A stretch of DNA of 64,000 nt from a virus (IMGVR_UViG_3300045988_108820:32529-96528), one strand, 5' to 3'. Shown: positions 5,572-58,300, counted from the stretch's first letter. Notes: generated by a model from the letters alone, not told the origin. A program made the numbers and translations.

Positions 5572-5573
5572 CT

Positions 5574-6098: not shown

Positions 6099-6119
6099 CA
6101 TAGAAAAATAATATATAAT

Positions 6120-6687: not shown

Positions 6688-6719
6688 CTAAAAATAATTA
6701 TAAAAAACTTATAAAAAAG

Positions 6720-6750: not shown

Positions 6751-6764
6751 TAATTGTTGAAGAT

Positions 6765-6836: not shown

Positions 6837-6842
6837 CAATAT

Positions 6843-6915
6843 ACAGGGATGTTAGCAGTGGTAGCTAGTTAGCCTCATAAGCTAAAGGTCGTGGGTTCGA
6901 CTCCCACTCCCTGAA
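6843..6915 (+). tRNA. tRNA-Met(CAT) (elongator, initiator or Ile2 identity unresolved)
   Basis: D arm TAGC-AGTGGTA-GCTA, anticodon stem TTAGC/GCTAA, loop CTCATAA, T arm GTGGG-TTCGACT-CCCAC. The acceptor register is ambiguous, giving either an A1-A72 mismatch or a 4-bp T stem. Ends are accurate to about 1 nt. Confidence 0.75.
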
Positions 6916-6987
6916 CAAATTAAAATTAATAAATATATCTTCTTTGAAGAATACTTTATCTAGTGTATCATATATAAAAATAACACT

Positions 6988-9241: not shown

Positions 9242-9504
9242 TGAATATAATAAATAGTATAAATAATGTATTAACAAAGGGAGAATTATTATTACATATA
9301 GAACCAACTTCCACAGCTATAAAATCTGTGTTGAAAATTAACTATAAATTGTACATTCTAACTAAAGATAATGAATCTCCAAAAGAGATTCTTTTCTTCT
9401 CTAGTACTCTAACACCTGGGAATGTAATAAGTGATTTAGATGAATGGGCTACTCAAGAGATACTTAAATTTGTTATACATGGAGGGTTAAGAGATTATGA
9501 ATAA
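9238..9504 (+). CDS. hypothetical protein (88 aa)
   Basis: ORF-track frame. It overlaps the upstream stop by 4 nt and the terminase start by 8 nt. Confidence 0.5.
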   Translation: MMNIINSINNVLTKGELLLHIEPTSTAIKSVLKINYKLYILTKDNESPKEILFFSSTLTPGNVISDLDEWATQEILKFVIHGGLRDYE

Positions 9505-12500: not shown

Positions 12501-12748
12501 CTAATGGGGAATCAATATCTACTACAATCCCCAATCTACACTTTCTAAAGAATAGAGCTTTAATTAAAGAATTAATGCTTTATAATCCTGCTATTAATGT
12601 AGATAGAATTATGTCTATGTGTCAACTCATGTTATATAGAGAAGAAAAGATGATTCTTTATCAAGGAGAACCTAGAAGAGCAGAGAAAAGAATTGATTCT
12701 ACTTATCTAGGAAATGATCCATTCTTTAATAAAAACTATAAACAGTAA
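9497..12748 (+). CDS. terL: terminase large subunit, interrupted by an intein (1083 aa precursor)
   Basis: Removing residues 187-532 joins ...ELASRGKGK to SYSAASMLAKRF..., restoring a GKGKS Walker A P-loop. A Walker-B-like VLYLLEEAG lies downstream, and the gene sits immediately upstream of the portal-sized ORF. Confidence 0.8.
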   Translation: MNKYQTEYSKEYIESLPKEVQEQYYDFITSVPYISKLLSDNRKYAKDLPRDNEGKIIIDVTEPHILENTDYFRPSAIHYQQYGCYTKLKPNANPNSEYGKWIREEVRRCWEGYIRPEDGEWITGDMYFFLNYCPIQLIKKDSNGKSIRTIDFPKFWDGHYYKFHYLNQCRNEGHHAAELASRGKGKAHPYSQKILTPFGWKYWGDIQIGDYIYGDNGELTKVVDIPYDEVSDIYTVTLLDGRKVQCTNGHLFKVKNHKTKRIEIKPLIEIIKDYKSTRKVSNKTPNGIEYNYRIPKITNAVYFPSKRVPIDPYTLGLLLGDGCFRVISAKNYVLFTCDKEDYYTYEENIPYKIDKVTNNNYTHAIRFSVEPLINYKLYGLKSEHKFIPRDYLVNDRNVRLEILRGLMDSDGTVDKTSGIPVFSTTSEKLKEDFIFLCRSLGYNVSCSLHDSKFNNITYKSHYRIRVITNDPIFKLGRKLKLLNNFTSSYAKSKRDYTTIIDIQYSHKEQAKCITVNNESHCYIIGDFVVTHNSYSAASMLAKRFILGESNDVKKKVQCVATASERKYIQGANQLLDMFQYYIDFCANNTEFPRQRITSSLQNLAWTMGYVDSETNTRRGTENSVIGITSKDDESKLRGSRGVLYLLEEAGSFPRLLNLYQVLRPSVEDGNSVWGLIYLYGTAGDSDSDFSSMQELMYNPKGYNIKAINNVYDKEGQGRKQFTYFFPGYMNRADCYDKDGNSDVNKALIEILLDRYKVKYNSTDINAITKRIAEIPITPQEAILKTKDNIFPITELTKRLNEIDNNPNFFDDIYVGDLAFNKQGKVEFNATTTDTPIRDFPTKDNKVQGAIEIYEMPQEIHGKVPNERYILSLDNYENDQAQSMSLGSVFVLDLWTDRIVAEYTGRPMFVDDLNEICRKLCLFYNGKVMVENNKKNTFAYFSKMNSLHLMADTPEYLKNKQILKVNTFGNASKGCPATVPVINFSMERLRDWLLKPVTVTEESNGESISTTIPNLHFLKNRALIKELMLYNPAINVDRIMSMCQLMLYREEKMILYQGEPRRAEKRIDSTYLGNDPFFNKNYKQ
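10055..11092 (+). mobile_element. intein (346 aa) with double-motif LAGLIDADG homing endonuclease
   Basis: Block A-like AHPYSQKILTPFGWKYWGDIQIGDYIYG, block B TNGH, LAGLIDADG motifs LGLLLGDGCF and LRGLMDSDGTV. Block F is AKCITVNNESHCY and block G is FVVTHN followed by Ser +1. Confidence 0.8.
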
Positions 12749-39466: not shown

Positions 39467-40758
39467 TGCAGTTAGTTATAGATAGTAAATTTAGACCATT
39501 TTCCTATGATGAGCTTGTAAAGCCTCTTACACAATATAAAGAGGCTTATGATAAAGTGGAAGCACAATATTCTGATTTAGTTTCACAAACGGAACAATGG
39601 AAAGATATTGCGAATAGAACAAAAAGTCCTGAAGCTTATGCAATGTATAGTAAGTATGCTAATGACTTAAATAATATAGTAGATGATTTTAGTAGAGGTA
39701 TGACTTTACAAAATAGAAGTCAACTTATGTCTATGAAGAGAAGGTATGCTAGTGAAATACAACCTATTGCAAGAGCTAGTGAAGCTATGAAAGAAGCTAA
39801 TGACCTTAGAGTAAAGTCTGGTCCTGATTCTATATTTGAGGTAGGAGAATATAATTCACTAGATCAATTTCTTCATGGTAAAACAGCTAATAATAGATCT
39901 CAAAGTAGAGATGCTCTTACTAAGAGAACAGCAGCTATGACAGAAGCTGCTATGGCTTCAGCAATGAAAGATCCAGAGTTCAAAAAAGCATTGGGAGATC
40001 AATATTGGATGTTAACACAGCACACAGGAGGTTCTTATGCAGACCTTAAAGCTGCTATAGCCAATAATCCTCAAGCACAAAATAGATTTGCTGAAATTAA
40101 AGCTCAGGTGATGAAAGAAGCTGGTTATGATAGATATGATGCTATGGGTAAGCAAGCTATAGAGAGTGCTATTAATACAGGTTTATATGCAGGTCTAGAT
40201 AAACCAGTTAGGTCATTCCAAGCTAATCAAGCTTATCTTAACCCATTACAAGCTGAACAATTGTCTCAAGCTAAGACTGAGTTTGAGTGGAAGAAACAAG
40301 CTAGAAGACCTCTACCTCTTGGGAATGGTAACTATCTTGACCCAGTTTCAGGTCTTACCTTTACTGAAGATAATAAAGGTAAGAGAACTTATAATTTTTC
40401 TGGTAAGGGTTCTGGTAAGGGTTCTAATAAGGGTAGTTCTGGAGATGGTGATAATAGATCTACAAGAAAAGTTAATAGATTAGCTAAACCTATAAAGGTT
40501 AAAGTGGGTGGTGGAAATCCTATAGAAGAATATGGTGATACTGTAGAACCTACTGGTACAAAGGTACCATTTAATAAGTTAACTGGTGCAGCTAGGGACA
40601 TTGCTAAACAATATATGAATGATGATACTTCAGAGGGTTATGATATTTATATTGAAACACCAGGTACATGGGAATGGCATTCTCATCAGAGAATGTACAT
40701 AATACCAAGAAAAGTTGAAAGTATTGATAAAGAGGATGAAGGTGAAAATGATATTTAA
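39466..40758 (+). CDS. tail / ejected internal protein (430 aa)
   Basis: ORF-track frame. Its ATG overlaps the upstream stop. It contains a GKGSGKGSNKGSSGDG low-complexity tract. Confidence 0.55.
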   Translation: MQLVIDSKFRPFSYDELVKPLTQYKEAYDKVEAQYSDLVSQTEQWKDIANRTKSPEAYAMYSKYANDLNNIVDDFSRGMTLQNRSQLMSMKRRYASEIQPIARASEAMKEANDLRVKSGPDSIFEVGEYNSLDQFLHGKTANNRSQSRDALTKRTAAMTEAAMASAMKDPEFKKALGDQYWMLTQHTGGSYADLKAAIANNPQAQNRFAEIKAQVMKEAGYDRYDAMGKQAIESAINTGLYAGLDKPVRSFQANQAYLNPLQAEQLSQAKTEFEWKKQARRPLPLGNGNYLDPVSGLTFTEDNKGKRTYNFSGKGSGKGSNKGSSGDGDNRSTRKVNRLAKPIKVKVGGGNPIEEYGDTVEPTGTKVPFNKLTGAARDIAKQYMNDDTSEGYDIYIETPGTWEWHSHQRMYIIPRKVESIDKEDEGENDI

Positions 40759-40768: not shown

Positions 40769-43700
40769 ATGTTTACAGAAATTTTAAGAGGTCTTAAAGG
40801 TCTTAAAGGTCTCAGGGGTCTTGAAGGTCTTTCCCAACAAGAAAGAGATGCTTGGAGAAGAGTTAATGCAAGTAAACTCGAAGGTAAGTCTGCTCAATAT
40901 GAAGATAGATTGTATGCAAATCAACAATTTGTCAAGAAATTTGGAATGGATGCCTTTAACTCCTTTAATAGGGACCAAAGAGACTATATATATAAGGATA
41001 CAATAGTAAATGAACTTTATACTGATCTTTATAGCCCCTATACTGATAAAGTAGGAACTGATGGTAAATATATAGTTGACCCTAATAAGGGAATGGGGAG
41101 TGAAGCAGAATTTAAAAAGTATTATGCTATGGATGCAGACTCAAAATTGGAATTAATTAGAAGTGGTTGGAAACCTACTCCTCAAATTGAGTCTGAATTA
41201 AAGAAAGAGCGTGATATGAAATTAGCAGCAATAAATAATTCTAATGCTTGGGTTGGTGCTCCTAGCTATGCTCAAGGAGGTGTAACAGCTAGTTTTATTT
41301 TTAGAGAACCAATACACGAAGAGCTTTCTAGATCCGAGAATAATAAAATTTTGGAAGGAATTTATGCTAGAGATTTAAAGAAAAGGGAGGATGAACTTCA
41401 ACCTGAAATAGATGACTACTATTTAAATACTATAGGAAAACTAAGCGACTCAGAGGTGAAATCCCAATTTATGAAAGCTTTAACTCCCAGTGATACTAAT
41501 ATTGGTAATTCACAATTGCTTGCATTTTTTCATGATGGTAAAAATGTAGAAGACGAAGTAAAGAATTTTAGCATAGATGATATGAGGATGTATCTAGCTA
41601 AGTTCAAAGTCCTTAATGATAGATTAGGAGCTGGTGCAGCCTACACTGCATTAGATAATTATGCTAAGGAATATATAAGTGATCATCAAGGAAACCTCAC
41701 TTATGCAGGATTACTAGCAAAAGATATTGGTATAAGTGTGCTGTCTTATACTGCTGATAAAGTAAATAGTATAAGGCAACTATTTAATACTGGTAAAGGA
41801 AAATCTGTAGTATGGATCGATAATAAAGGTAATGTAGTTGCTCCAGATCAAGTTAAAACAGCAAAGAATGGAGATAAATATTATATCAATGATGATGGAG
41901 AAGTTACTGCAATAAAGCAGACTAAAATGAGTGTTACAGACTTAGATTATTTAGGTAAAGATGCTGAAGGTAATACTAGAAGTGACTTCCTAAATAATCA
42001 GTTTTGGGCAGATGCTGAACAATATGGTACTCTTGATTCTGATGAAATAAAACAATATAAAAAGTTAGGAGCATCTCCTTACAAAGTTGTATATAAACCA
42101 GGTGATGATTCAGATTTACTGTATGAAACTATTAAAATGACATCATTTGCTATAGCCGATGCTGCTTCTATGCTTATTCCAGGATACGGAGAAACTGTGG
42201 GTGCTGCAATGCAAACAACTAAAGCAGCTTCTTTATTAAGTAAGGCAATTAGTACTCTTGGTAAGGGTATATATTATACAAGTAAATTAGCAAAAGCTGT
42301 TCAACCTACAATTAGTGCTACAGCTATTGGACATGCCTATGGTAGAGGTGTATTTGGGGAGAGTCTAGCTCAAAATATGCAACAACTAGAAGAATATGCT
42401 TACACCTTTGCTCAGAAAAATTTTCATGATAATTATTATAGTAATAAACAGTTTAAGGATCAAGTAGACAAAGATGTACAAACTGAATTTAATAAACTAA
42501 AGAATATACAAAAGGCTGAGTTAAACACATCGGAGGGAAATAAAGAAATAGCTAACCAAGGACTCACTGATGAGGCTCTTATGGAAAAAGCTAAGCAGAT
42601 TGTTCATAGTACTTACATTGATAGAGGTGTTAAAGATATTCAAAATTCTGATGATTATTTTGATATGGTTGGCAAGGCTTCAGAAAGTGCAAGTGATGCA
42701 GCTATGACAGCTGCTATTACAGACGGTGCTAAGTATATGTTAGTTAATAATTTTGGATATAGAAAATTTCTATTTAATACTGCTGCTGATAGAGCTGCAT
42801 CTTCTGCAAGAAGATTAGCTCGAAATTTATCTGAAAAGGAGAGCAGAAGATTACTCTTTAAAAGTCTTATTGATGGAAATAAGTTAAAAACTATTGGGAA
42901 GATAACAGCATCTCAAGCATGGGGAGGTGCATGGACTAACTTTACTGATGAAATGCAATCTTGGGGTGGTAAACAAATAAATCAGGATAGATTCTCTTCT
43001 TATTTAAGTGGTTTTTATAATGGTCAAGCTTCAGATGATATCTATGGTGCTATAGATGCAGTAACTTCATATTTTAATGGTGCTATGGCTTCCTTAGCTA
43101 AAGGCACAACTTGGAAGGCAGGATTTGTTGGTGCTACTGGTTCATTAACTTCATTCGCTCCTAATGTTGCTTCAATAACTACTACTATTGGTACAAAAAG
43201 AGGTAGAGAAGCTTGGAGAAAAGCTTCTTTAGGAGAAAGAGCCAATATGATTTTTAATAATGGAGTTCTTAATGAATACTATGGAAAGAAACAGGGTGAA
43301 TCAGAAATAAAAAGGTATGTAGATGTAGTTAATAAATTACTTGATGAACAAGATAACTTTTCTATATTAAAAAGTGCTGTAGCTCTAGATAGAGCTTCTA
43401 TTGATGTAAGTAATCAGGAAGATAAAAATGCTATCACATTCCTAAAAGCGGTAAATGCAATATCACTATTACATCAATTTCAGAGTGATAGTGGTATTAA
43501 AGATCAGTCTAGTTCTAGAATAAAAAGATGGTTAAAGAATAAATTTGGTGAAGGTGAAAACACTTTAGGGGCTGTTGCTAGTCAATCTACTATACTTACT
43601 AAGGCTTTATCAGAAATAGAAGATTTAGTTAATGGAAATCTAAGTGAAGAATCTGCAAAGAGTTATCTATCTGAATACTATGCTAAAAACCCAACAGTAG

Positions 43701-46700
43701 AACAATCAGAGGATAATAATAAAAGAGCTTTAGAGGAGATGTCCCAAAATGCTAAAACTCTCCAAGAGGCTGAAAATACTTGGCAAGATATTAATTCTAA
43801 GCTTGATATGGTTGAGAAGGATAGAGGTTCCAAAATATCTTCTAATGTTAGAAGTAGACTACTTGAAAGAGCGGCACTTGATGGTTTCTTATCAGAAAGG
43901 TTAGATGCTCTGGAGGATAAAATTTCAGGTAATAGAATTAACACTTCTACTGAATCAACTGCTGAGACCTGGGGTACTAAGGAAGCTATTAAGGAACAAG
44001 TTCTATCTATGGAAAGAACTGAGAGGGATCTTAATAAGGATATAATTGTTGCAAAGAATAGATTAGATAATGCCACTACTAAGTTAAATGAGTATAAAAA
44101 GACTCATGATATTGAGAACTTAGATGATATAGCTACTACAGAGTACATAGGTTTACTAAATAATGTTGAAGCTGCCAAACTACAGTATGAATATACTACT
44201 AATTCTATGGATAAGCTCAAATCTAGGCAAGAAAAGATGAAAGCTATGAGTAAAGAGGAATCATCAAGAGTTTTATCTAAGAATGAAATACTGGCATTGC
44301 CCTCAGAAGCTAGAGCTAGAATGCTTAATGATTTGAATAGAAGTAATTATTCAAAGGAGCAACTTGAACAAATAGATGCTCTTAAGAATGAACTAACTCT
44401 AAAGGATCCATCATTACTACAATCTATACAAGATCAAGCTAGGCTCTTAAAGCAGAAAAATGCTAATGCTAGTGCCTATGAAATGATGTTAGAGAATCCA
44501 GAGGCAGCTTATACAGAATTTGAAGCTCAAGATGGTGTAGATGCTACTATATCTAGAGATTTATTCTTTAGAAGGTATAGTGAGAGCATTAATAATGTGA
44601 TAAGAAAATTGAGTAGTCTGAGTAATATAAAAGATATAAGTCAAGATGATATAAGGGAAGCAATATATAAAAATCTTAGAGTCTTACATCCCAAGATACT
44701 TGATTACTTAGACACAACTCTACCCAATGAAAAAGGTTTAGAATTTATTCCTTTATATAGCAATGAGATAGTAAAGGCTAAAGAATGGTCTAATATGCTT
44801 ACAGATATAAGTAAGGCTGTTGACCAAATGAACTTTGACGATTCAACTAAGAAAGTATTCAGTGACAATATAGGTAATCTTATTGATAAAGCTTCTACAA
44901 GAAAGCAAGCTATGGATATTTTAGAGCAAGTTAGTAACTCTACTGATGTTTCAAACTCAGATCAAGCTAACTTTAGGAAGTTACTGAATATAATCAATGG
45001 TGTTGAAGAACAAAGAAATGCTACTACTACAGAGACTAAAGAAGAAAAAAAAGCTAGACAGGAATCTCAAGAGACTCAAGCAAAGCAAGAGGAAAAGAGA
45101 GTAAAGGATGCTGAAGATAAAGCACAAGAAGCTATTGAAGTAACAGAAAAAGAAGCATCAAATGATAAAAATGCTCAAGAAGCTTATCAAGAAACAGAAA
45201 AAGAGAAATCCAATGAACAAAATGCTCAAGAGACTTACACTGAAACTAAACAAGAGAGAAGAAATCAAGAAGAAGCTAATAAGCAATTAAATACTTATGA
45301 GCAGACTGACGAAGATATAGCTAGAGATAAAGCTATAGAAGAACAAAGAAAAGAGGGTGTGGACTTTTCATCAGGAACTATAGACTTTGAGAGTCCTGAT
45401 TGGGAAAAACAAGTAGAACAAGCAGAGGCAGAAGGACATAAAATAGAAGAAGGATTTGTTAGTAAAGATACTACTGATGTTACTGATCAAGGAAATAGAG
45501 AGTCTATGCAACCTAGTGAAGTTTTAGCAGGAAATTATTTTCATAGATATGATGTAGATGCTCTAATAGAAGATAAAAAAGAGGTAGTTAGCTATGGTAG
45601 AAAGGGAGATATATTAGATAGAATATTAAAGTGGTTTGAAAATGCAGGAATCAAACTTCAGGAGATAGTAGATACTGAAGTGGGAGACATTATGAAAACT
45701 AAGCCTGAAGTACATCTACTATATGTAAATCCTAAAACTACTGCTACTGATGATGCTTGCTTTAGTGACACCGCTATGTTAGCAGTAGAATATACTGACA
45801 AAATATCTAAAATACATAATAATGATAGGGGGGGAGTAATTACTGCTAATGGTAAGCAATATCTAATAATAGGTACTCTAGGATTCAATAATAGAGAGCA
45901 ACAAAGCAATTATGTAAGTGTGCATAATCCAGCAAAAGGCTCAAGACTTAAATATTTTACAGCTAATCCTAATGAACGATTCTATATCCTTCCAACTGCT
46001 CATACCGAGATAGCTGAGATGACATCAGGAAGAATAACAAGACAATTAGAGAGTGATTCAGAGGTAAAAATTAGACCTGTTACAGAACTCTTATCTGAAC
46101 CTAATAGAAATCCTAAGGGATTAAAACTCCAAGATCTTAAGTGGGGTATAATGTTTGAAGATGGTTTACATTATGCAAATGTTTCTCCTAGAAATACTGT
46201 GTACCCTCCTAGAGATACCCTAAGTAACTTAGGTGCTGTATTTTTACTAATTGAAACTGCTAATGGTAATTATATACCAGTAGCAATAAGATCTACAATG
46301 CTCTCTGATTTACAAGATGGTACATTAAAGACTCAATTAAATAATCTATTTAATGAATTAAGTTCTACTAAATATTCAGATAGATTAGGTGCTATTAATC
46401 AACTTGTAAAATTACTTAATATAAATGAGAAGGGAGATAATATACTCATAGGAATGGATGATAAAGCAACTGTTAGTACAGTTAAGAATGGTACTGTATT
46501 AAGGACATTCAATTTGAAAGATGCTAACTTTAGTAGAATGGACTTAATTAATGCTATTTTTGAGCTTAATCCTAGAGTTAATATTACTTTATCTACTCTA
46601 AGTGATCCTGTACAGTTAAAAATGTATGCAGAAGCAGGTGCTTTGAACACTGATATAGCTAAATTAGGAACATCCAATGCAAGTTATACAGTGTACTCAA

Positions 46701-48487
46701 TGGATGCTAATGGTAATCCAATTAAGACTAAGCCAATAGAGAATAGAGATCCAAGTACAGAAGCTAATAGTGACTTAAACAAAGCTGACTATAAGAAGAA
46801 ACACTCTGTATATTATAGAGGTTCTCAATATAGAGAGAAGAATGGAAAGTGGTATAATACTAATTGGAAAGAAGTAACAGATCCTATATTACTTAGTCAA
46901 ATTAAATGGACTAGCTATATTAGAGTAAATGATTTGACTCCTAATTTAGTTGGTAATGATATGTTTGGTAATAAGAATAATGAATATTACATTATTAATT
47001 CTAATCCTACAAATGCAAAAGTGATTAAAGTACTTAGTAATGGTATTGTAGCTGAACTTAACATAAATGATTCTAGAGTAATAATAGAGAAAGTACAAAA
47101 TAGAGATATTCAAGCAACTAGAGAAAAAGCAGCTAAAGAAGAGAAAGAAAGACTTATGCATATTGAAAACTCTATGGACTATGATAATGCAGAAGCGGCT
47201 GGTGAGGGTGAAGATGTTACTAAGGTTAATGAGATTAGTGGAGCTAATTTAACTGAGGAACAAATTATTGCACAAGGTAATGGGGATTTCCAACTTGACT
47301 CTAAACCTCAACCAACAGATACTGAGCTTAAGGCACAAGCTATGGTAGATAGAATAACCTCTGATTCTCATGACATCATTCTAGATGAAAAGAGAGGTGT
47401 ATATGTAGATTCCACAGGCAAAGAAAGAGCTAGAGTTACATCAGTAATTCAAGCTACTGAAGGTACTGAGAGATTTGACCCAAATAGTCCTTGGATTACT
47501 CCTTCTACTAATGTGGGAACAGGAATGGATAACTTTGTAAGAGACTTCTTTGCTAGTAAATTGGGAAGTTTAGATAGCCTTCAGGAGAGGTATCCTAATG
47601 CCACAACTGCTCAACTACAAGCCTTTGAGAAACAGCTCCAAGAGTTCAAGGCTAAGCTTGATAAAGCTGGTTTAACAGTAGTTCCAAGGGATGTTACTGT
47701 CACTGGGGAAGTTGAAGTTACAGATACTAATGGTAAGAAATATAAATTACCTGTAGCAGGAACTCTAGACTTGCTTGCCTATGACAAAGATGGTAACTTC
47801 TATATCTTTGATATGAAGACAAATCATAGTACTCCTAATGCTAAAAAAGCTGCAAAGTGGAACAAACAGTTATCTTTATATAAGCAGTTCTTAGAAGAAA
47901 AGTATGGTGTTAGTGTAAAAGAGACTTCTATAATTCCAATAGAAGTGAAGTACCCAGCTCCTAAAGGATGGAGAAATGGAAAAACTGTATATAGAGCAGA
48001 TGAAAAAACTAATCAACTCTATTATCAGACAGAGGATAATTCTGGAGCATTAACCTCTAGTACTCCATATAGAGATGCTAAACCAATCTTACACTCTAAC
48101 ATACCAATCTCAACTAGTCCTGTAAAGATAGAGTATAGTTTACTAACTGATTCTGAGAAAGCATTATTATCTCCTGTGGTAGATGGAACATTTAATTCAT
48201 CTACAGGTACTACTAACATTGAGAATAAAAATAAGAACAAAGACATTAATAAGACAGGTGACATTTCACTAGCTGAATTACAAGCTAGTACAAATGCTAA
48301 ACCTACTAATGTAAGTTCTATGCTTAAAAATAGAAACTATAGTAAAAAGGTAAGAGGAATACTAAAAGAGAAAGGTTTTAATGGTAAAATGTCTGAGGTA
48401 GAAGCTTGGTTAAAAGAGCATAATATGCCTATAAGTAATATAAAAGACATAGATTCTTGGATTGATATGTTACAAAACTGTAGATAA
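40769..48487 (+). CDS. giant tail / ejected protein (2572 aa) with C-terminal PD-(D/E)xK nuclease domain
   Basis: A single uninterrupted frame. It has an N-terminal GLKGLKGLRGLEGL repeat, hydrophobic Ala/Gly-rich segments, a central E/K/Q-rich repeat tract and a C-terminal nuclease motif set (see sub-feature). Confidence 0.7.
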   Translation: MFTEILRGLKGLKGLRGLEGLSQQERDAWRRVNASKLEGKSAQYEDRLYANQQFVKKFGMDAFNSFNRDQRDYIYKDTIVNELYTDLYSPYTDKVGTDGKYIVDPNKGMGSEAEFKKYYAMDADSKLELIRSGWKPTPQIESELKKERDMKLAAINNSNAWVGAPSYAQGGVTASFIFREPIHEELSRSENNKILEGIYARDLKKREDELQPEIDDYYLNTIGKLSDSEVKSQFMKALTPSDTNIGNSQLLAFFHDGKNVEDEVKNFSIDDMRMYLAKFKVLNDRLGAGAAYTALDNYAKEYISDHQGNLTYAGLLAKDIGISVLSYTADKVNSIRQLFNTGKGKSVVWIDNKGNVVAPDQVKTAKNGDKYYINDDGEVTAIKQTKMSVTDLDYLGKDAEGNTRSDFLNNQFWADAEQYGTLDSDEIKQYKKLGASPYKVVYKPGDDSDLLYETIKMTSFAIADAASMLIPGYGETVGAAMQTTKAASLLSKAISTLGKGIYYTSKLAKAVQPTISATAIGHAYGRGVFGESLAQNMQQLEEYAYTFAQKNFHDNYYSNKQFKDQVDKDVQTEFNKLKNIQKAELNTSEGNKEIANQGLTDEALMEKAKQIVHSTYIDRGVKDIQNSDDYFDMVGKASESASDAAMTAAITDGAKYMLVNNFGYRKFLFNTAADRAASSARRLARNLSEKESRRLLFKSLIDGNKLKTIGKITASQAWGGAWTNFTDEMQSWGGKQINQDRFSSYLSGFYNGQASDDIYGAIDAVTSYFNGAMASLAKGTTWKAGFVGATGSLTSFAPNVASITTTIGTKRGREAWRKASLGERANMIFNNGVLNEYYGKKQGESEIKRYVDVVNKLLDEQDNFSILKSAVALDRASIDVSNQEDKNAITFLKAVNAISLLHQFQSDSGIKDQSSSRIKRWLKNKFGEGENTLGAVASQSTILTKALSEIEDLVNGNLSEESAKSYLSEYYAKNPTVEQSEDNNKRALEEMSQNAKTLQEAENTWQDINSKLDMVEKDRGSKISSNVRSRLLERAALDGFLSERLDALEDKISGNRINTSTESTAETWGTKEAIKEQVLSMERTERDLNKDIIVAKNRLDNATTKLNEYKKTHDIENLDDIATTEYIGLLNNVEAAKLQYEYTTNSMDKLKSRQEKMKAMSKEESSRVLSKNEILALPSEARARMLNDLNRSNYSKEQLEQIDALKNELTLKDPSLLQSIQDQARLLKQKNANASAYEMMLENPEAAYTEFEAQDGVDATISRDLFFRRYSESINNVIRKLSSLSNIKDISQDDIREAIYKNLRVLHPKILDYLDTTLPNEKGLEFIPLYSNEIVKAKEWSNMLTDISKAVDQMNFDDSTKKVFSDNIGNLIDKASTRKQAMDILEQVSNSTDVSNSDQANFRKLLNIINGVEEQRNATTTETKEEKKARQESQETQAKQEEKRVKDAEDKAQEAIEVTEKEASNDKNAQEAYQETEKEKSNEQNAQETYTETKQERRNQEEANKQLNTYEQTDEDIARDKAIEEQRKEGVDFSSGTIDFESPDWEKQVEQAEAEGHKIEEGFVSKDTTDVTDQGNRESMQPSEVLAGNYFHRYDVDALIEDKKEVVSYGRKGDILDRILKWFENAGIKLQEIVDTEVGDIMKTKPEVHLLYVNPKTTATDDACFSDTAMLAVEYTDKISKIHNNDRGGVITANGKQYLIIGTLGFNNREQQSNYVSVHNPAKGSRLKYFTANPNERFYILPTAHTEIAEMTSGRITRQLESDSEVKIRPVTELLSEPNRNPKGLKLQDLKWGIMFEDGLHYANVSPRNTVYPPRDTLSNLGAVFLLIETANGNYIPVAIRSTMLSDLQDGTLKTQLNNLFNELSSTKYSDRLGAINQLVKLLNINEKGDNILIGMDDKATVSTVKNGTVLRTFNLKDANFSRMDLINAIFELNPRVNITLSTLSDPVQLKMYAEAGALNTDIAKLGTSNASYTVYSMDANGNPIKTKPIENRDPSTEANSDLNKADYKKKHSVYYRGSQYREKNGKWYNTNWKEVTDPILLSQIKWTSYIRVNDLTPNLVGNDMFGNKNNEYYIINSNPTNAKVIKVLSNGIVAELNINDSRVIIEKVQNRDIQATREKAAKEEKERLMHIENSMDYDNAEAAGEGEDVTKVNEISGANLTEEQIIAQGNGDFQLDSKPQPTDTELKAQAMVDRITSDSHDIILDEKRGVYVDSTGKERARVTSVIQATEGTERFDPNSPWITPSTNVGTGMDNFVRDFFASKLGSLDSLQERYPNATTAQLQAFEKQLQEFKAKLDKAGLTVVPRDVTVTGEVEVTDTNGKKYKLPVAGTLDLLAYDKDGNFYIFDMKTNHSTPNAKKAAKWNKQLSLYKQFLEEKYGVSVKETSIIPIEVKYPAPKGWRNGKTVYRADEKTNQLYYQTEDNSGALTSSTPYRDAKPILHSNIPISTSPVKIEYSLLTDSEKALLSPVVDGTFNSSTGTTNIENKNKNKDINKTGDISLAELQASTNAKPTNVSSMLKNRNYSKKVRGILKEKGFNGKMSEVEAWLKEHNMPISNIKDIDSWIDMLQNCR
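47351..47968 (+). other. PD-(D/E)xK (RecB/Cas4-like) nuclease domain within the 2572-aa protein
   Basis: Ordered motifs: RVTSVIQ (res 2222-), GTGMDNFVRDFF, GTLDLLAYD (D2334), IFDMKT (D2348-x-K2350) and QLSLYKQF (Q2367-xxx-Y2371). Confidence 0.6.
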
Positions 48488-48492
48488 AAAAG

Positions 48493-48520
48493 AAAGCCAG
48501 TAGGAATTCTACTGGCTTTT
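48493..48520. terminator. bidirectional terminator between convergent giant genes
   Basis: AAAGCCAGTAG (48493-48503), loop GAATT, CTACTGGCTTT (48509-48519). It is flanked by an A-run on the left and a T-run on the right, between the stops at 48487 (+) and 48530 (-). Confidence 0.7.
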
Positions 48521-48529: not shown

Positions 48530-51500
48530 TTACTTTTGTAAATTGTTCTTTTCAAACACTTGGAATACACCATTATCAGTATCCATTTCATTAAGTTGTT
48601 CAATTTGTCCGTAAAATGGAATTAAATACTTTTGAATGTTTCTAAAGTATTTATTTTCCCCCTTATGCTTACCAGACTTAATTGTGTCATTAATATCTCC
48701 AATACCAGCAAATGGGTATAAAAAGGAATTAACTACATTAGATGCAGCTATAGGACTGTTTATTAGAGTATTCATTTCCATAGGAATACCCCATGGAGTT
48801 GAACCATTTATATCTGTAATAGCTCTCTTTGTTTGATATATCCACATCCTTGTCCAAAATTCTTTCTTATGGTCATCAGGTTCACCGAGAGCAAATGATA
48901 ATGTAAGAAGACTAGATAATACAAGTATTTCAGATAGTGCTCTTCTACAATTAGCTTTTTGCATAGGATTCATCTCATTCCAATGCAACATTGATTCTCT
49001 TTGAAACCTAAATATATCCCCAGCCATAGCATAAGCAAACTTAGAAGCTGTGTTATAATATCCCTCTCTATTTTCTCCAAGAGTAGCATCATAATGAGAA
49101 CTCCTAAATCTTCTAGAGTAGTGTTCAACCATCCATTGCCTTAAATTCATTATAAATCTACCAGCCATGTGTTGATGAATTAAACCTTTGTCTTCTTCAT
49201 TCATAGCACCATGGGTAGTTTGATTTACATATCTAATTCTTTTTCTAATCTTCTCTAAAAAGGCATCATCAATAGGAACTTCTTGACCATTATCATCAGT
49301 ATATGTAGCATTTTTATCAATTATTAGTTCAGAATTACCATCTACCTTATTACCTACAGAGAATACATCATAAAGGGATTTAGTTTTTCCATTTATTTTA
49401 ATCTTAGTATTATGTAATACAGCATACATATTTACAAAGTGAATTAAGTGTTCACCTGCCCCATAACCTATGAATGAGAAGTTCTTTCCCAAAAGATGTC
49501 TTAGTGGTCCTCTGTAATATCTTTGATGCTGTAATTCTCCAAAATTTTCATTTAATGGATCAAATATTTGTGCTAACAATACTGATTTACTATTAGTATT
49601 ATTAGTCATAAAGTCCATTATTCTTCCTACAGAGCCTTTAATATTATCACCAAAAACTTTCTTATGTGCCCATGCATAATCAATAGGATTATAAAACTCC
49701 ATAGCCCCAGACTCTACTAACATTTGAAGTTCACCTACTAGGTAGTTAGATATAGCTCCTTTAACATTAACAGCCAAACTCTTTAAAGAAGTATATGCAA
49801 GTAGATTCTTCAGTAACATGTGATATTTTCCAGGGTTTTTAATATTAACACCATATATAAATTTATCAACAAATCCATCAACAATACCAATAGTATTAGA
49901 ATTACTTGCAAAAGCTCTTAATTGTTTATAAACCCTAATACCTGTATCTTCTACCATATCTAGACTTTTATAGTTCCTTCCAGCAGCTACTTCTTGGTCT
50001 TTAATAAAATCAGCCATAAATTCAACAGTGTCTTTAATATTATTCATAGCCTCATAGTTTATTGCAGTTCCTGCTAAGTGTTGTATAGCACTAGAGAAAT
50101 CTTTCAGTAGTTCTCCTTTATCTTTAATCTTATTGATATAGAATATAGGTATTTGTCTAAATGGAGTATTATCTAATGCTCCACTAACTATGTTATATTC
50201 TTCTCCATTTACTATACCATTATTTGCATATCTATCATCATCTTCTCTTATAGTAGTAAAGTCTTTAAGTTTTGTTCTAATAGCTTTTATTAAATCTCTA
50301 AGACTTCCCTTCTTAACAGCAGCTTTCATAGCATCCACAAAGGATCTCCTAATTTGAGGAGGTACAAATTGTCTTTGAGCATAATTAGGTAATAAGGTTC
50401 CTAATTCTCCTTTTATTTGCATCATTGTTTCATAATACTCCTGTTGCTCACTAGTTAATTTAGGAAATGCTTTTCTATATGTGGAATTAGGAACTCTCTC
50501 AGTTCTGCCACTTACTAAATCTACAACTCTATCCTCTGTATTAGCTTCTTCCCAATTTTTTATAGCTTCATCTACAGATAGACCTCTAGTTCCTTGCCCT
50601 ATTAATCCTTTTCTAAAATTAGCTCTAGCTTTATAATAAGCAGTCCAATCAATATCACTTATGATATAACCATTAGGCTCATACATAAAGTCACTCTTAA
50701 AACCTGCTTTTCTGAGTTTATGTTCTGCTCTTCTTATTCTAAGAGATATAGCATTCATCTTAGCATCCCTAGAAGATTGAGCATCTCTTATAATGTTACC
50801 CATAGTAGCAATTAATGGGTTAGAAACTCTTCCAATACTATATAAATAGTCATAGATAGTAGAGTCTTTTTCAGCCATTTCAACTATATTAACTACAGAC
50901 ATGCCATTAGAAAGTTTATCTCCTAAATATTCAGTAGCTATAGTAGTCATAGTATTTAGTCTTAACTCCCTTAGAGTTTTATCATGTTTATCAAAGAATT
51001 CTACTAGTTTAGTAGCTTGATCTTTTATAATTTGTTTATCAGTATCACTAAGTCTTTCATCTGAGATAATACTATCAATATTAGACAATGATGTAAGAAT
51101 GCTTTTATAACCATCAGTAATAGATTTAACCTGCATTAGTGACTTAGCTATAGCAGAAGCTCTCTCTAGATTACTTCCAGATTGTGGAGTATTCTGGAGG
51201 ATTTTTTCCACTTCTTGTATTTGTGTAGATGCTTCACTAAGAAATCCTAGAATACCAACATAGTATCTATTACTATTAATTTCCTTCATAAGTGTATGCA
51301 AAGACTGTTCCAATCTAGTAGTTTCAGGGGTTATTCCCTGCTCTGCTTTCATCTTTTTGAGCTGTCTTTGTAATGTTATAGCAGCTTCTGATGCTGCTTG
51401 AGATAAACTCCTTATATTATTTCCAACTAGTACTACTTCATTAAAGTCTAGATTATATTTCTTATTTAGTGCTTTTATTGTATCTTCTATCTTACCTTCT

Positions 51501-52375
51501 TCTGAATTTCCAATTGCCTGTTCTACACTCTCTATTTGTTGTGAAACTGCATTAATATCAAGTCCATTATACTTTTTACAATTATTTAATGTAGCATCTA
51601 TTAAGGCTTTTTGAGAAGCTGTTACTCCACCAACTCTATAAGAGTCATATATTTTTTGAGCAACTTCTTCCAATGTGCCAAACATTTGCTTAAGTCTTTG
51701 TACTTGACTACTTGATTCATTAAATACTAGAAGGTCTTTAATCTCTTTTCTGTCAAGAAACTTATTATCAGTAAATTGTACATTATGCATTTGAAGTATA
51801 GCATTTCTAGCATTAGCTGCATTATATACTGATTTATTAACATCAGCAGATTCAATGTCTATACCAACATTATTTAAAGATTGTTTTAATATATCCCATT
51901 GTTGTAGTTGCTTTTCAACTTGAGCACTTCTTAATTGTGTTCTTGAGTTTCTCACATCTACTACAATATTAAATTTATCTCCTCCAGAATAGACAGCAGC
52001 TACAGTACCTTTACTAGAATTATTATGACGCTGTGCTATATCAAGGGCATCTTTAGCATTAGTATAATCAATAGGATTTCCTGAGAAATCAGTAGCTCCT
52101 ATTGTTCTTGATACTTCACTTACCTTTCCTTCTGTAGATTCCCTAATAAATGACATTACATCTAGGTACTTTTCTACATCTGCAATCTTATGTTCACCTT
52201 GGTCATTTCTAGAATAACCTAGGCTATCCATCTGTGCAGCTACCCCCGATTGGAGGTAGACTGCATAGATGTAATTAGCCTTTGGTCTATTCCCTGTGAC
52301 TTTAAGTAACTCCTTATAGAGTTTACTAGGTTTACCCTGTATTGTAGGGTATAATTCACATGAATTTTTAGCCAT
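48530..52375 (-). CDS. giant virion/ejected protein co-transcribed with the RNAP-type gene (1281 aa)
   Basis: Its ATG immediately follows the TAA of the 3115-aa gene with no spacer. A single uninterrupted frame. No catalytic motif recognised. Confidence 0.65.
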   Translation of the reverse strand: MAKNSCELYPTIQGKPSKLYKELLKVTGNRPKANYIYAVYLQSGVAAQMDSLGYSRNDQGEHKIADVEKYLDVMSFIRESTEGKVSEVSRTIGATDFSGNPIDYTNAKDALDIAQRHNNSSKGTVAAVYSGGDKFNIVVDVRNSRTQLRSAQVEKQLQQWDILKQSLNNVGIDIESADVNKSVYNAANARNAILQMHNVQFTDNKFLDRKEIKDLLVFNESSSQVQRLKQMFGTLEEVAQKIYDSYRVGGVTASQKALIDATLNNCKKYNGLDINAVSQQIESVEQAIGNSEEGKIEDTIKALNKKYNLDFNEVVLVGNNIRSLSQAASEAAITLQRQLKKMKAEQGITPETTRLEQSLHTLMKEINSNRYYVGILGFLSEASTQIQEVEKILQNTPQSGSNLERASAIAKSLMQVKSITDGYKSILTSLSNIDSIISDERLSDTDKQIIKDQATKLVEFFDKHDKTLRELRLNTMTTIATEYLGDKLSNGMSVVNIVEMAEKDSTIYDYLYSIGRVSNPLIATMGNIIRDAQSSRDAKMNAISLRIRRAEHKLRKAGFKSDFMYEPNGYIISDIDWTAYYKARANFRKGLIGQGTRGLSVDEAIKNWEEANTEDRVVDLVSGRTERVPNSTYRKAFPKLTSEQQEYYETMMQIKGELGTLLPNYAQRQFVPPQIRRSFVDAMKAAVKKGSLRDLIKAIRTKLKDFTTIREDDDRYANNGIVNGEEYNIVSGALDNTPFRQIPIFYINKIKDKGELLKDFSSAIQHLAGTAINYEAMNNIKDTVEFMADFIKDQEVAAGRNYKSLDMVEDTGIRVYKQLRAFASNSNTIGIVDGFVDKFIYGVNIKNPGKYHMLLKNLLAYTSLKSLAVNVKGAISNYLVGELQMLVESGAMEFYNPIDYAWAHKKVFGDNIKGSVGRIMDFMTNNTNSKSVLLAQIFDPLNENFGELQHQRYYRGPLRHLLGKNFSFIGYGAGEHLIHFVNMYAVLHNTKIKINGKTKSLYDVFSVGNKVDGNSELIIDKNATYTDDNGQEVPIDDAFLEKIRKRIRYVNQTTHGAMNEEDKGLIHQHMAGRFIMNLRQWMVEHYSRRFRSSHYDATLGENREGYYNTASKFAYAMAGDIFRFQRESMLHWNEMNPMQKANCRRALSEILVLSSLLTLSFALGEPDDHKKEFWTRMWIYQTKRAITDINGSTPWGIPMEMNTLINSPIAASNVVNSFLYPFAGIGDINDTIKSGKHKGENKYFRNIQKYLIPFYGQIEQLNEMDTDNGVFQVFEKNNLQK

Positions 52376-55300
52376 TTAGCAAAGTTTTTTATATTCTTCT
52401 TCTATAGTTTTTTCATCAAATTTAATTCCAAGAACTTCAAGTCTAGATTTCATGAACTTCTTAACTTGTGATTCAATAGCCTTCTTAAACTCATTGTCCA
52501 TATTTTTATAATTTTGGATAGTACTTTCTGCATCTGCAAGTGTTTTACCCTTCGTCATATATATTTGGTGTAATAAGTCTATTTGCTCTTGTTCACTATT
52601 AGTAGATTCATCTAACTTAGTTTCTCTATCCACATCTGGATTATTAATCTCTGATTTTGTATTATCTTCCAAGGATACTGAAGGAATCTCAAGAGGTTTC
52701 TCAATTCCATCAATGCTAATCTCTAGATAGTCTTTGTTACTTCCAAGAGGATTAATTTCTTTGTACTCAATAGATTCATCTTTTGATAGAACTTGCTGAT
52801 ATAATTTATCAACATTATCTACTCTCATTTTAAAATATTGAGTTTTCTGAAGATCTTTAACATCACTCTCTTTATATACTTCAAAGTTACCATTCTCAAG
52901 CTTTCTCATAACAAGATTTTTCTTTCTAGGAACAAGCTTGTTATTGTCCCAGTTATTTCTAATAAACTGGTCAAGGACTATCTCAGGTGTGCTACTTGGG
53001 AGTACTCTAAATGTATCAACATAACTACTAAGTCTCTCTTTCACATATACAGGAACTAAACTCATAAAGGTTTTAGGAGAAAATCCTATTCCAGCTCTAA
53101 AGAAACAGTACTTAAAGAGTTTTTCAGATAATTCTGGATTCACTCTATGAAGGTCAATCCAAGCACTACTTAGTCTTTCTTTTTGTAGAATATCAAGACC
53201 AGTAATATCAACCTGAAGAGTGGCTCTACCTCCTTTATCAGTTCCATATTTTATAGACTGAATGAGAAGATTATTTTTATACTGTTCTTTGTAGTTTTTC
53301 TCCATAAACTCCTTAGGGAACTCTGATATAGTTTTACCTAAATCATTTGATTTTACTACATTACCTGCTACAACAAGATAGGACTGATAGAAGTCACTTA
53401 AACTACTAAGAATTTTTCTATCACCGAGAATAACATCACCTATTGGATTTTCACTAGCATAAGTGAGGATATTTCTAAATCCTGTACTATTAGCTGGCAT
53501 ACTACTAAATAAGCCTTGTGCTATTCCTAATGTTTTTCTAAATTGATTTAGAATAGGATGTGCAAGGAAGATATCATTAATACTAATTTCCTCTCCATCT
53601 GAGCCAAGAATATTACTCTCAGAAGAAAGCTTTTCCATTTTATGCTCGGTGATTAAATTATCAATAATCAATGGACCCACTGCACTACTTATTGAGTTAA
53701 ATCTAGTAGCAAATGTAGGCATCCTCATAGCGTCAGCAAGTCTTTGAAAGTTTCTAAATGACTTAAGAACTTTGTATTCAATTCTTGAATCCCTTGATTT
53801 TACACCTTTAATTAATTGCTCTCTAGTAAGTTCTTCTTCATTAAGTAAACTATTCTCATCAATATTTAGATCTTTCTCTATTTTCTTTATCCTATTTTCA
53901 ACTACTTTACTTAAAGAAGTAAATCCTGTGATATTTTCACTACTAAATTGATTAAGAACATCTGATATAACTCTTTGAGATAAGAAGAGAGCAGCATCAT
54001 CAAAAGGCATTCCAAGTCTTACAAGAGTATTAAGAATATTAGCTGTATTACTATTAATATTCATCAAGTTAAGTACAGGATCTTTAACAGCATCAGCTGC
54101 ACTAGCAACTAAACTACCAAGTACTTTACCAACTGATTGTCCACTATTATCAAGTCTAACATCAATAGGCATATTACCTCCAAAAGTCATATCTGCTACA
54201 GTAAATGGTCTAGTAAGGTTACATGCATTATCTACATTCATCATATATCCTTCATTCTCTATTACTGCATGAGCAGTTCTATTAACTGCAAAGATACCAA
54301 TAAGAGAACCAGCAGCACTATTTTGTTTGTAGAATTGTATATGAGTATCAATAAACATAAGATTCTTATCTTTACTACTTAAATCCTTGAGTTCATCAAT
54401 AGACATCTTACTTAATTCATCATAGCTTTTGTCAGTAGTTCTAAGAGCAGTTACAAGATAACCCATTCTCTTTTGTGGGTCAAAGCCACCTGGATTTAGC
54501 ATTTCTGCACAACTAGTTTCATGTGTTAATACCTCATAAGTCATATCAACAATCTTATTATTTCTATAAGTTCTTCCTTCTGTAGGTTTATTAACAGTAA
54601 AAGCATTTTGTAAATATAACTTAAGTAACTTACTATAAGAATTACTAGGAATTGACATGAATCCTTCAGCTGTCTTTTGATTAACTAGAGAGGCTCTATC
54701 AAATGGGTCTTCAAGAAATTGTCTAACCAAATCATTAAGTTTGCTTTTAACATTATAACTTAGTTTCCCTTTTTGAGACTCAACTAGAGAATCATATAAT
54801 ATTTTATGAAGAGCAGATTTAGTAATTTTATTTTTAGAAATACTGTAATCTTTTCTCATAAGATACTCCTTATCAACATCAAAGTCTGAACCTGTGAGTA
54901 GTGTAATATCACTAGGTAACATAATACCATCACCAGCTTCTCTAGGTAAGAAACCCACAATCTTCAAAGGAGCCATACTATATTTAGCTTCAGTAGGAAT
55001 TCTATAGCCAATCATCTTTAATAAATCAGGGTCAAGAGCTTCCAATGCTTCTATGCTAATGTTACCATTCTTATCAGCGAATTGACTGAATAGATTGTTA
55101 GCATATATAGGAGCAAATACCTCAAAGTAAGCAATACCTCCTTGATTTTCTTTTATATAATCTTTATAGGACATTGTACCTTCAGAAACCTTTAATCCTT
55201 TGTATTTAGCATTAAATTTATCAGTTTGAGAAAGTTCTTTCTTTATAGGATTTTTTTCATATTCTGCTCTTGTTTTTAATAAACCTCCATTCTTGTCTTT

Positions 55301-58300
55301 AAATCTAATATTAAGTTCTCTAGAAGTACCAAAGTTAGTAACCTGTACAACAGGACCACCAGCTATTTCTTGTTTATTAACTCTATTCTTTATAACAGAG
55401 TTGACTAATTGTTCAACTCTTTTACTCTGAATAGGATCTCCAAGAGGTATTCTAAATCTACCATTTTCATCAACCGAACAAGCTTGTAAGAGATCTATAC
55501 CATATCTAGGACTGGATAATATTTCTCTTTGTAATATCTTACTAAGAGCTATATTTCTATCTTTTGTATTAGTACTTTGAAGACCTAGAGCACTCTCTAA
55601 ACCACTTATACTATCTTCAATATTATCTGCAATAGTTTGTTCATACTCAGACTTAAATTCATCAGCAGATATTTTTTTACCTTCAACTTCATAGGTTGCA
55701 TCATTTCCAAAGCTATCTTTTGTAGCAAGTTCTGATACTACAATATATCTCAATTGGGAGCCATGAACTTGCTCATGATTCTTAAAGTGCTCAGGCACTT
55801 CTTGTTGTAAACAATAGTCTTCAAAAGGTAGCTCTTGAACATAAGTTTGATTATATTTACCTGTTTTGGTATCTATAGTCACATCCTCAAGTTTTCCAGT
55901 CTCTTGGTTAGTTCTTTGGATTGTTTTAGGAGCTGTCTCATATATACAAGCCTCCATAACAGCTTTGGCTTTAGCTTCTCCATTGACATCATTAATATAT
56001 TTATTAAGATTAATTCTGCCCATTAAGCCAGACTTTACAGTTGACTCAAACTGAACAGTATCAATACCATCTGTCTTATAGTTACCATCTTCATCATAGT
56101 GACTTTCTTCCATTACTTCATAGATTGCTCTAAGTAGGTTTGGTCTACCAGTGTTCTCATTTTGAAGAATAGCATCAGCCATTATAAGAAGATATTCAGA
56201 GTTTTTATTCTGTACAGGTATTTTAAGCTTATCAAGGGGAGCATTAGGTACACCAGAAGACTTTTCTATTTGACTATAAACAAAGGGCTTTAGTGGTTGA
56301 AACGCTACACTTAGATCACTATAATTGTAATCTCCCTTTCTAAGTTTTTGATATATTTCTTCTGCCTTTTTACTCCATTTACCAAAAATAAATGCTTTCT
56401 TTCTATATGATGTTGGAGAAGAATATCCTTGAGCATCTGCTACATTTATTTTTCTAAATGCACCATCTTTACCTACAAGAGAGTCTTTTAATACTCTATA
56501 ACCATCTTTTTCAGCTTCTGGAGCTTCAGCTATCTTTCTATCAAAAACAATTGATACATTGTCAATGATATTAGATACAAAGTCATCCCAGTCTTTAAGA
56601 TAGAAGGTTCTTTCCTTTCCATCAGAGACTTTACTACCTTCATAGTCTGTAGCATCTACATTACCTCTTATACCTGGAGCATGGATTTGTGCTAATCTCT
56701 TTTGTAAATCTTCTGCATCCTTATAATAGGCAATATCAGTTACAGTTAATTCCATTATGTTCATAGCTGCAAAAGTATCATTCCAAACAAAGTTTTCAAG
56801 ATTAGATTTAATCTCTTCCTCTGTAGTACCAATACCTGAGATTTTCTTAGCTCCTTCCATAAGACCAGAGTTAATCCAATTCTCTACAATGGATTTAGCT
56901 CTAGTGTCTAAAGTATCAAAGATAGCTTTATTAGCAAGTTCATATAACTTAGCTTCATCTACTTCTTTACCATTGATTTTATTGTTTATAAGTTTACCTA
57001 ATTCACTATTCTTTTTATCTCCAGTAAGATAATCATTCATAAAGTCAAGGAAGCAGAACTTTTTACCATTTTTATCAAAATTCTTTATGAATCTTGGACC
57101 TTTACTATCGAGGTTTCTCATCAGTACGGTTTGGATTCTACTTAACTCTTGATTAAATATGTCCATCATACCATCTGTAATAGTTTCTCTATAGTTAATA
57201 CCTCTTTCACTATAAAACCTTATGAATTCAGAAGATGGCTTATTAGATAACATAGGCACCCTAAACCAAGCAGGTACTCTTGATTGTTTATCATTTGCAC
57301 CTTCTGAAAAATACTCTGTAAGTAATGAGAGTGCATACTCCATATCACTCATATTCTTCATATAATTGTGCTTATTGAAACTGAGTTGTACTTTATGTTT
57401 AAAAACACTTCTAGCTTTACTATCAGTAGCTAAAGTTCTAAGCCAACTGTTTCTCCAACCTCTTTCAATATCTGTGCCTTCATGAAACCATGGTTGGTTT
57501 GCATACTCCTCGGTCAGAAAGTCATCAAAAGCCTGTCCCTCTTGACTAAATTTTTGCATTAACTTAGACATATAAGAAGGAGTTACATAACTTTGATACA
57601 TTTTACCATTATCATAAAAGGCAGAAATTGCAATATCTTCTAAGTGTTCTGTGATAGGCTTTAAGAACTCTCTCATATTACCATTGATACTATCTTTAGC
57701 CTTAAACTTGAAAGGTTCATAAGAAGCATTATCAAGATTATTTTCAAAAGATCTTATCATGTATCCTAAAGCACTATACATCTTTTTAAAAGTTTCACTC
57801 GTAAGATTACTCTTTACCATATCAGGAGTTACATAATAACCAAATAAGCTTGAAATATAATCTAAAGTATTAGCAACTTCATCTTTATCAACTTCTTTAG
57901 ATAAATCATATCCTGTATGCCTAAACTTTTCAAGACTGTCATAAGCAGATTTAAGTTCTCCAAATGATTTTTTATTTATACCCTCAGTAGTAAATAATGG
58001 ATGTTCTCCTATTTTATACTGAGTTGTGACTTGCGTCATGGCTTCACTAAGAGCAGGATTTTCATTTACTGAAATACTTTTATATTTTCCATCTTCTTCA
58101 ATTACTGTTGAATATGATTGAAATGGCTTAAAGAATGTTCCGTAGAATTGACTCTGAAAATCAGTCTCTTTACCAGAAGTATCAGATAATCTATCAATAA
58201 GTTGTTTAACCCAAGGATTATCTTTCTGCTTTCCTTGTAATTTAGTTATTGCACTAGCCAAACTTAATGAGCCTTGTGTCCATCTAAGTATAGAATTAGT

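Follow-up and report, generated by a model that had tools for sequence, protein, structure and literature searches.

We analysed a 64,000-nucleotide stretch of viral DNA (IMGVR_UViG_3300045988_108820:32529-96528, hereafter the window) and found that the giant open reading frame (ORF) at 40769..48487 (+), which encodes a protein of 2572 aa in an uninterrupted frame, carries in its C-terminal part a predicted nuclease domain of the RecB/AddA/Cas4 branch of the PD-(D/E)xK enzymes. The domain covers residues ~2184-2466 (47318..48166, +). A Pfam profile, the predicted fold, the conservation of the catalytic residues and a residue-by-residue alignment with RecB agree in supporting this RecB-family assignment, which a preliminary description of the same DNA had proposed. 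The window comes from a crassvirus of the Steigviridae, with Pamirivirus cr116_1 as the nearest relative, and the giant ORF takes the place that gp47, an “RNA-polymerase-associated” cargo protein, has in phiCrAss001. A PDDEXK domain in large transcription-block proteins of some crAss-like phages was reported by Yutin et al. 2021 (PMC7886860), a 2023 review (PMC10136315) repeats that report and calls the function unclear, and UniProt/BFVD names the cr116_1 orthologue “PD-(D/E)XK endonuclease-like domain-containing protein”. The finding of this nuclease domain in the window is correct, well supported and already known; the window is another member and not a discovery. Literature searches returned no functional characterisation of the gp47 nuclease after 2021. 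Weighing the possible roles, we tentatively favour, with slightly less than even confidence, an accessory, swappable, virion-delivered DNA nuclease effector that would not be a core part of the polymerase.

Four motifs mark the domain, and all of them, together with the residues D2334, D2348, K2350, Q2367 and Y2371, lie within the 2572-aa ORF exactly where the preliminary description had put them. RVTSVIQ (aa 2222-2228, 47432..47452, +) is the putative N-terminal motif I and lies at a strand-to-helix junction. On the same strand it is followed by GTLDLLAYD (motif II, aa 2331-2339, 47759..47785, +) with the metal-binding D2334, by IFDMKT (motif III, aa 2346-2351, 47804..47821, +) with D2348-x-K2350, and by QLSLYKQF (motif IV, aa 2367-2374, 47867..47890, +) with Q2367-xxx-Y2371. 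Taken alone, the bare pattern D..(D/E)xK..QxxxY carries little weight, because 42% of shuffles of a protein of this length contain one. The full RecB-type signature GxxD-hh ... hh-[DE]xK-[ST] ... QxxxY was seen in 0/2000 shuffles, and a scan of the 159 six-frame ORFs in the window gave a single occurrence.

The Pfam profile PF12705 (PDDEXK_1) matches residues 2284-2395 at 23.8 bits (E 5e-5), which is marginally above its curated cut-off of 22 bits. The orthologue of IAS virus scores higher at 35.5 bits, and the profile is matched at E<1e-3 by 6/18 giant homologues scanned. Because the Pfam alignment stops short of RVTSVIQ, the reading of this stretch as motif I rests on its conservation (of 130 non-gap homologues, 123 retain the R and 121 the T) and on its position in a structural model, in which a strand (model residues 45-48) leads into a helix (49-57).

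This AlphaFold2 model covers residues 2175-2475, was built on 15 sequences and has a predicted local distance difference test (pLDDT) score of 88.8 and a predicted template modelling (pTM) score of 0.85. When it was submitted to Foldseek, a check that the preliminary description had suggested, a nuclease fold with the restriction-endonuclease-like alpha/beta core was returned: the 16 top matches are all RecB-family nucleases (probability 0.96-1.00), and the best matches in the PDB are AdnA, AddA, the Cas4-family protein ACE1, Exo5 and Cas4 SSO0001 (probability 0.97-1.00). RecE and MGME1 rank lower in the list, with RecE matching weakly (E 0.035, probability 0.69). The QxxxY motif sits in a helix of the model (184-205) that comes after the D-x-K strand. 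An hhalign comparison with the nuclease domain of E. coli RecB gave a weak pairwise score (E 0.046) and paired D2334/D2348/K2350 with D1067/D1080/K1082, the catalytic residues of RecB; D2334 is aligned with the segment GFIDLVF, D2348/K2350 with LLDYKS and Q2367/Y2371 with QYQLY. Sequence searches of the PDB, with either the domain alone or the 15-sequence profile, gave chance matches only (transketolase, an Rhs protein and MukF), and the relationship to RecB nucleases becomes apparent solely from the Pfam profile and from the fold.

With RecB, AddA and AdnA the domain shares its fold (best Foldseek matches 6ppr_A, 3u44_A and 4ceh_A), the signature GxxD-hh ... hhD-x-K-[ST] ... QxxxY and the lack of an Fe-S cluster, and with RecB there is also the residue-by-residue correspondence described above. 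It differs from these enzymes in having no SF1 helicase in the same polypeptide, in its additional beta-rich C-terminal extension and in its location on a putative phage particle protein instead of a cellular repair enzyme, and its sequence similarity to them lies under the detection level of PDB sequence searches. Pfam found no helicase anywhere in the 2572 aa and the upstream block has no known fold; with residues 1620-2140 modelled and lacking a PDB fold match, a motor-nuclease arrangement of the RecB/AddA type was ruled out. Cas4, ACE1, Exo5 and AddB belong to the same Pfam family PDDEXK_1, give strong fold matches (9iac, 7lwa, 4ic1) and have a similar N-terminal strand-helix with an S/T-rich motif. 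In contrast to these proteins, however, the domain does not have the four cluster cysteines: the only cysteines of the 2572-aa protein are C1664 and C2571, with none in residues 2184-2466, and the Fe-S cluster of Cas4, AddB and Exo5 is therefore absent. Of the wider “RecB/AddB/Cas4/lambda-Exo” grouping given earlier, the RecB-family part holds, whereas the fold matches on the lambda-Exo/RecE side are weak and the AddB/Cas4-type cluster is missing. Pfam gave no YqaJ match in the 2572-aa protein, and Pfam scans of the window ORFs showed no annealing protein adjoining or fused to the nuclease module.

A profile search covering 1.84 billion cluster representatives found 758 relatives of the domain, 462 of them at E<1e-10, and the best 150 are nearly all giant proteins of 1200-5199 aa. 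Among 167 aligned homologous domains, which are mostly less than 50% identical to each other, D2334 is kept in 165/165, D2348 in 163/165, K2350 in 166/167 and Q2367 and Y2371 in 164/166 each, so that the five residues whose conservation had been proposed for checking are retained in 98-100% of the homologues. P2390, Y2395 and P2398 are also nearly invariant. The interval flagged originally, 47351-47968, captures the catalytic core but ends too early: a conserved beta-rich extension (aa ~2400-2466, 47966..48166, +, with the pattern IIPIxVxYPxPxG...) follows the core, and the folded conserved unit therefore runs ~200 nt further in the 3' direction, to 48166. The strands of this extension (208-290 in the model) have a pLDDT of ~90. 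Beyond the genus, the nuclease domain is the sole segment of the protein that is recognisable by tblastn, at ~50% identity, and it was recognised in this way in DAC15/17, IAS virus, Kolpuevirus, cr106_1 and cr126_1. Compared with cr116_1 (YP_010111554), to which the giant protein is 79% identical across its full length, the domain reaches 90.8% identity and the preceding linker 51%. No other segment of the protein is as well conserved as this domain, and strong selection acts on its active site.

The module is not bound to one carrier. In an IMG/VR survey of 80 loci with the nuclease module, it was found inside the cargo/polymerase block in 80/80, while the carriers vary. It sits at the C-terminus of a gp47-like protein, in the layout of the window, at 62 loci, and is fused in front of a gp49-like region at about 10 of the 80, in ORFs of ~1640 aa such as IAS virus gp057; in the IAS-virus lineage the module is thus joined to the gp49-like protein type. 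At four loci, the module and a DFDID virion RNA polymerase share a single uninterrupted ORF of 2684-3154 aa (L077, 8471-17932; L082, 9548-17710; L084, 9479-17683; L085, 9521-17572). In L082, the nuclease at aa 142-449 is followed by polymerase homology at E 1e-235, and in L082, L084 and L085 it takes the N-terminal region that bears an ART-PolyVal ADP-ribosyltransferase domain in the polymerase protein of the window. Among the 18 giant homologues scanned, ART-PolyVal lies in the same polypeptide as the nuclease in five, and GNAT, FtsK-gamma and SF1-helicase (AAA_30/AAA_19) domains were seen in one case each. The nuclease is a mobile module, which hops among three carrier proteins and swaps places with ART-PolyVal.

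Cellulophaga phage phi14:2 (NC_021806; L088 and L087) has no such domain in g065-g067 or elsewhere, as judged by an unfiltered hidden Markov model (HMM) search and a motif scan, and an obligatory link between nuclease and polymerase was therefore rejected. The virion polymerase of phi14:2 works in vivo although the phage lacks the nuclease domain, which counts for an accessory character of the module. A separate exonuclease (g046) is found in the replication block of this phage, which also has a Sak4-like annealing protein (g034). In phiCrAss001, gp70 is a separate PD-(D/E)xK exonuclease of the replication block; because it shows no profile similarity to the nuclease domain of the window, the two represent separate subfamilies. 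Within the window, neither an HMM search run without filters against every six-frame ORF nor Pfam scans of 25 ORFs found a nuclease paralogue of the structural-block “PDDEXK_a” kind. Taken together, the changes of carrier, the interchange with ART-PolyVal and the existence of a separate exonuclease in the replication block suggest an accessory effector.

The surroundings of the ORF match those of phiCrAss001 gp47. The ORF comes immediately after the genes for the muzzle and for the two Crassvirus cargo proteins (Pfam E 1e-57 to 1e-289), of which cargo protein 1 (gp45-like) is encoded at 36740..39466 (+; PF25725, E 3.7e-57) and cargo protein 2 (gp46-like) at 39466..40758 (+; PF25712, E 1.7e-92). 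Two giant genes on the opposite strand converge on the ORF: a gp49-like protein of 1281 aa (48530..52375, -; phmmer against phiCrAss001 gp49, E 6e-56) and a 3115-aa homologue of the gp50 virion RNA polymerase (52376..61723, -), identified by its homology to phiCrAss001 gp50 and by its DFDVD motif. This order, from muzzle over cargo 1 and cargo 2 to the ORF and on to the two convergent genes, is that of gp44 to gp50 in phiCrAss001, and it bears out the earlier placement of the ORF in a block of giant cargo genes downstream of the tail genes. The DFDVD polymerase motif lies at aa 2280 of the 3115-aa protein (54872-54886, -), and its ART-PolyVal ADP-ribosyltransferase domain at aa 178-307 (60803-61192, -; E 9.5e-20). 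A HELIH motif was observed at aa 569 of the same protein. Some GenBank entries label homologues of the nuclease-bearing protein as an RNA-polymerase subunit, as is the case for the giants of Kolpuevirus (L001, 6376-13101) and IAS virus (L002, 10465-15393). These two have no DxDxD motif region, and the nuclease is their only recognisable enzyme domain. For the window protein the label was likewise rejected: it has no DxDxD motif, which resides in the 3115-aa neighbour.

In addition to its position after cargo 2, phiCrAss001 gp47 shares the nuclease domain itself, in a divergent copy (24% identity, E 8e-12) with the motif versions VAGEVDIL, IYDVKT and QLSAYK. This copy, which Pfam does not detect, lies at aa ~1714-1868 of 2341 and not at the very end of the protein, and no similarity between gp47 and the window protein is detectable outside it. 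Weak matches over the N-terminal and central parts link the window protein with its Kolpuevirus orthologue, and ~25 metagenomic giants match it end to end. Presence in virions has been shown by others for the homologue gp47 only: mass spectrometry placed gp47, gp49 and gp50 in phiCrAss001 particles, and the ejection of gp47 into the host is a proposal of the same work (PMC10172136).

We hypothesize that ejected giant proteins serve as delivery vehicles for the nuclease in the style of “polyvalent proteins”. The C-terminal part would be a RecB-family DNA nuclease that is able to cleave in the presence of metal ions, has neither a helicase partner nor an Fe-S cluster and is joined through flexible linkers to the end of a giant cargo protein of the gp47 type. 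Packed in the capsid, the carrier would be expelled into a Bacteroides cell along with the genome, and the nuclease would be present from the start of infection, ahead of any phage gene expression. Its targets there may be DNA molecules with free ends or single-stranded parts, and during the take-over of the cell these would most likely belong to the host, to plasmids or to competing phages.

Several observations weigh against this proposal. RecB-type nucleases require DNA ends or single strands, and because the incoming linear genome has ends and the host chromosome has none, the phage's own DNA is the more obvious substrate. The module is confined to the polymerase block and sometimes fused to the polymerase, which fits a transcription-linked role equally well. 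Each virion likely holds few copies of the carrier, a point against the wholesale breakdown of host DNA, and strong sequence conservation is atypical of arms-race effectors. Finally, the virion evidence comes from a protein of another phage that is just 24% identical in the domain.

Could the nuclease instead act on the genome with which it enters? As an exonuclease it might resect direct terminal repeats right after entry, either for annealing into a circle or concatemer or for the removal of blocked or damaged ends. We regard this as a serious rival to the effector, albeit an unlikely one. RecB-family enzymes (RecB, AddA, lambda Exo, RecE) act at DNA ends, at this stage no DNA other than the incoming genome has any, and the high conservation of the domain would fit a housekeeping substrate. 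In agreement with such a role, a 576-bp direct terminal repeat has been predicted for the packaged DNA of phiCrAss001 (PMC6235969). However, the phages have a separate early exonuclease in their replication block (phiCrAss001 gp70; phi14:2 g046, which is accompanied by the Sak4-like annealing protein), no annealing protein is fused to or located beside the module, and its patchy distribution and carrier hopping are unlike a core function in genome maturation.

The same patchy distribution over lineages would fit counter-defence, in which the nuclease degrades DNA or RNA components of a defence system or occupies DNA ends against RecBCD-like nucleases. Its delivery ahead of gene expression would resemble that of known injected anti-restriction proteins, and conflict-type domains, ART-PolyVal and GNAT, co-occur with it. 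We nevertheless consider this role improbable, as the domain shows no likeness to a known anti-defence nuclease and its PDB and BFVD matches are generic repair and recombination nucleases.

The constant association with the polymerase block has to be considered separately. It could be explained by template preparation, if the nuclease resected or nicked one strand at the entering genome end and thereby supplied single-stranded DNA to the co-ejected polymerase. The phi14:2 gp66 polymerase is efficient on single-stranded or denatured DNA and shows hardly any activity on native double-stranded DNA, and no motif of an early promoter could be identified for it (preprint 10.1101/2020.03.07.982082); these properties of a related enzyme speak for such a partnership, as do the retention of the module in the polymerase block throughout the survey and its sharing of an ORF with DFDID in L077, L082, L084 and L085. 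Against it, phi14:2 itself lacks the domain and its polymerase accordingly does not need the nuclease, the domain is found in only “some” crAss-like phages (Yutin et al. 2021), and the host-modifying ART-PolyVal fills the same slots, so that fusion may mean merely shared delivery. Resection across the 40-kb early region would, moreover, destroy the genome. Template preparation is thus doubtful in our view, and we give little credence to its more specific form, a polymerase partner that is tethered or fused at the entering end and exposes the single-stranded template needed, which would explain why early promoter motifs are missing; where the domain itself is missing, as in phi14:2, another factor would then achieve the same. 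That the fold is kept merely for DNA binding or packing, without catalysis, would agree with the Pfam score barely over the cut-off and with the PDB sequence searches without a match, but it is very improbable because the retention of the catalytic residues in 167 diverged homologues would be unexpected in an inactive domain.

The preferred reading, an accessory effector delivered by the virion, has parallels in known phage systems. Polyvalent proteins (Iyer et al. 2017, PMC5512222) are very large and composed of several domains; their genes lie beside virion genes, packaging and injection are predicted for them, and their enzymatic modules are interchangeable. A point in common is ART-PolyVal, which occurs in the polymerase protein of the window and in five of the 18 nuclease-bearing homologues; differences are that the DNase here is of the RecB-type PD-(D/E)xK kind and that the window protein has a single recognisable enzymatic domain. 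T4 Alt, an ADP-ribosyltransferase, and the N4 virion RNA polymerase are likewise loaded into the capsid and act before phage gene expression (PMC5512222), but they are not nucleases. Literature searches found no characterised virion-injected nuclease of the RecB type. A PD-(D/E)xK nuclease is also fused to or associated with a virion-carried viral RNA polymerase in influenza PA and bunyavirus L, where it cleaves capped host mRNA to obtain primers. This likeness is an analogy only: the window domain has the QxxxY signature of DNA-repair nucleases, and we know of no mRNA caps in bacteria.

Apart from the nuclease, the giant protein is as unassignable as had been stated: Pfam finds only this domain, a PHROGs search with the whole 2572-aa protein gave no match, and the block upstream has no counterpart among PDB folds. 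This upstream block (aa 1620-2140, 45626..47188, +) is predicted to be folded (AlphaFold2 pLDDT 83.1) and has conserved residues including EAGAL-T, while the search of its model against the PDB gave no significant fold match (best E 0.59). Between it and the nuclease lies the acidic, poorly conserved linker mentioned above (aa 2141-2183, 47189..47317, +; 51% identity to cr116_1). The upstream block and the nuclease module move independently in the homologues P0133 and P0135, and the position of the nuclease relative to the aa 1509-2137 block differs among gp47-like proteins. The protein ends in a conserved tail (aa 2526-2572, 48344..48484, +; ...WIDMLQNCR) with Cys2571 at 48479-48481, and a cysteine is found within the final 7 residues in 82/84 homologues that have a C-terminal nuclease domain. 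One conceivable function of this cysteine is that of a signal for packaging or anchoring.

Immediately after the ORF, a hairpin with a 13-bp stem and T-runs on both strands (48492..48520) is likely a bidirectional terminator; two terminator-like hairpin sites were found in comparison to 0.2 expected from shuffles. The two convergent giant genes are 42 bp apart, and the hairpin lies between them at the point where the GC skew switches sign. Elsewhere in the window, Pfam recognises the major capsid protein, the portal, tail ring proteins, an auxiliary capsid protein and the tail hub. Upstream of the portal gene, a 1083-aa ORF (9497..12748, +) presumably encodes the large terminase; a LAGLIDADG/homing-endonuclease match in its middle, at aa 388-481, suggests an intein or a similar insertion. 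Near the window start there are 15 transfer RNA genes in two divergent arrays, 651-2715 (-) and 5422-6916 (+), and such genes are likewise present in phiCrAss001.

Among the viruses of the human gut, crAss-like phages are the most abundant, and the start of their infection is poorly understood. Their particles hold three giant proteins around an unusual RNA polymerase. If the domain is active, the cell would contain a nuclease before the reading of phage genes begins, and what becomes of the DNA of the host, of plasmids or of rival phages, or of the phage's own genome ends, could depend on it. The survey, with its evidence for selection on the active site, hopping between carriers, exchange with ART-PolyVal and dispensability in phi14:2, argues for an accessory effector, and phiCrAss001 gp47 offers a culturable test case for the role of this nuclease.

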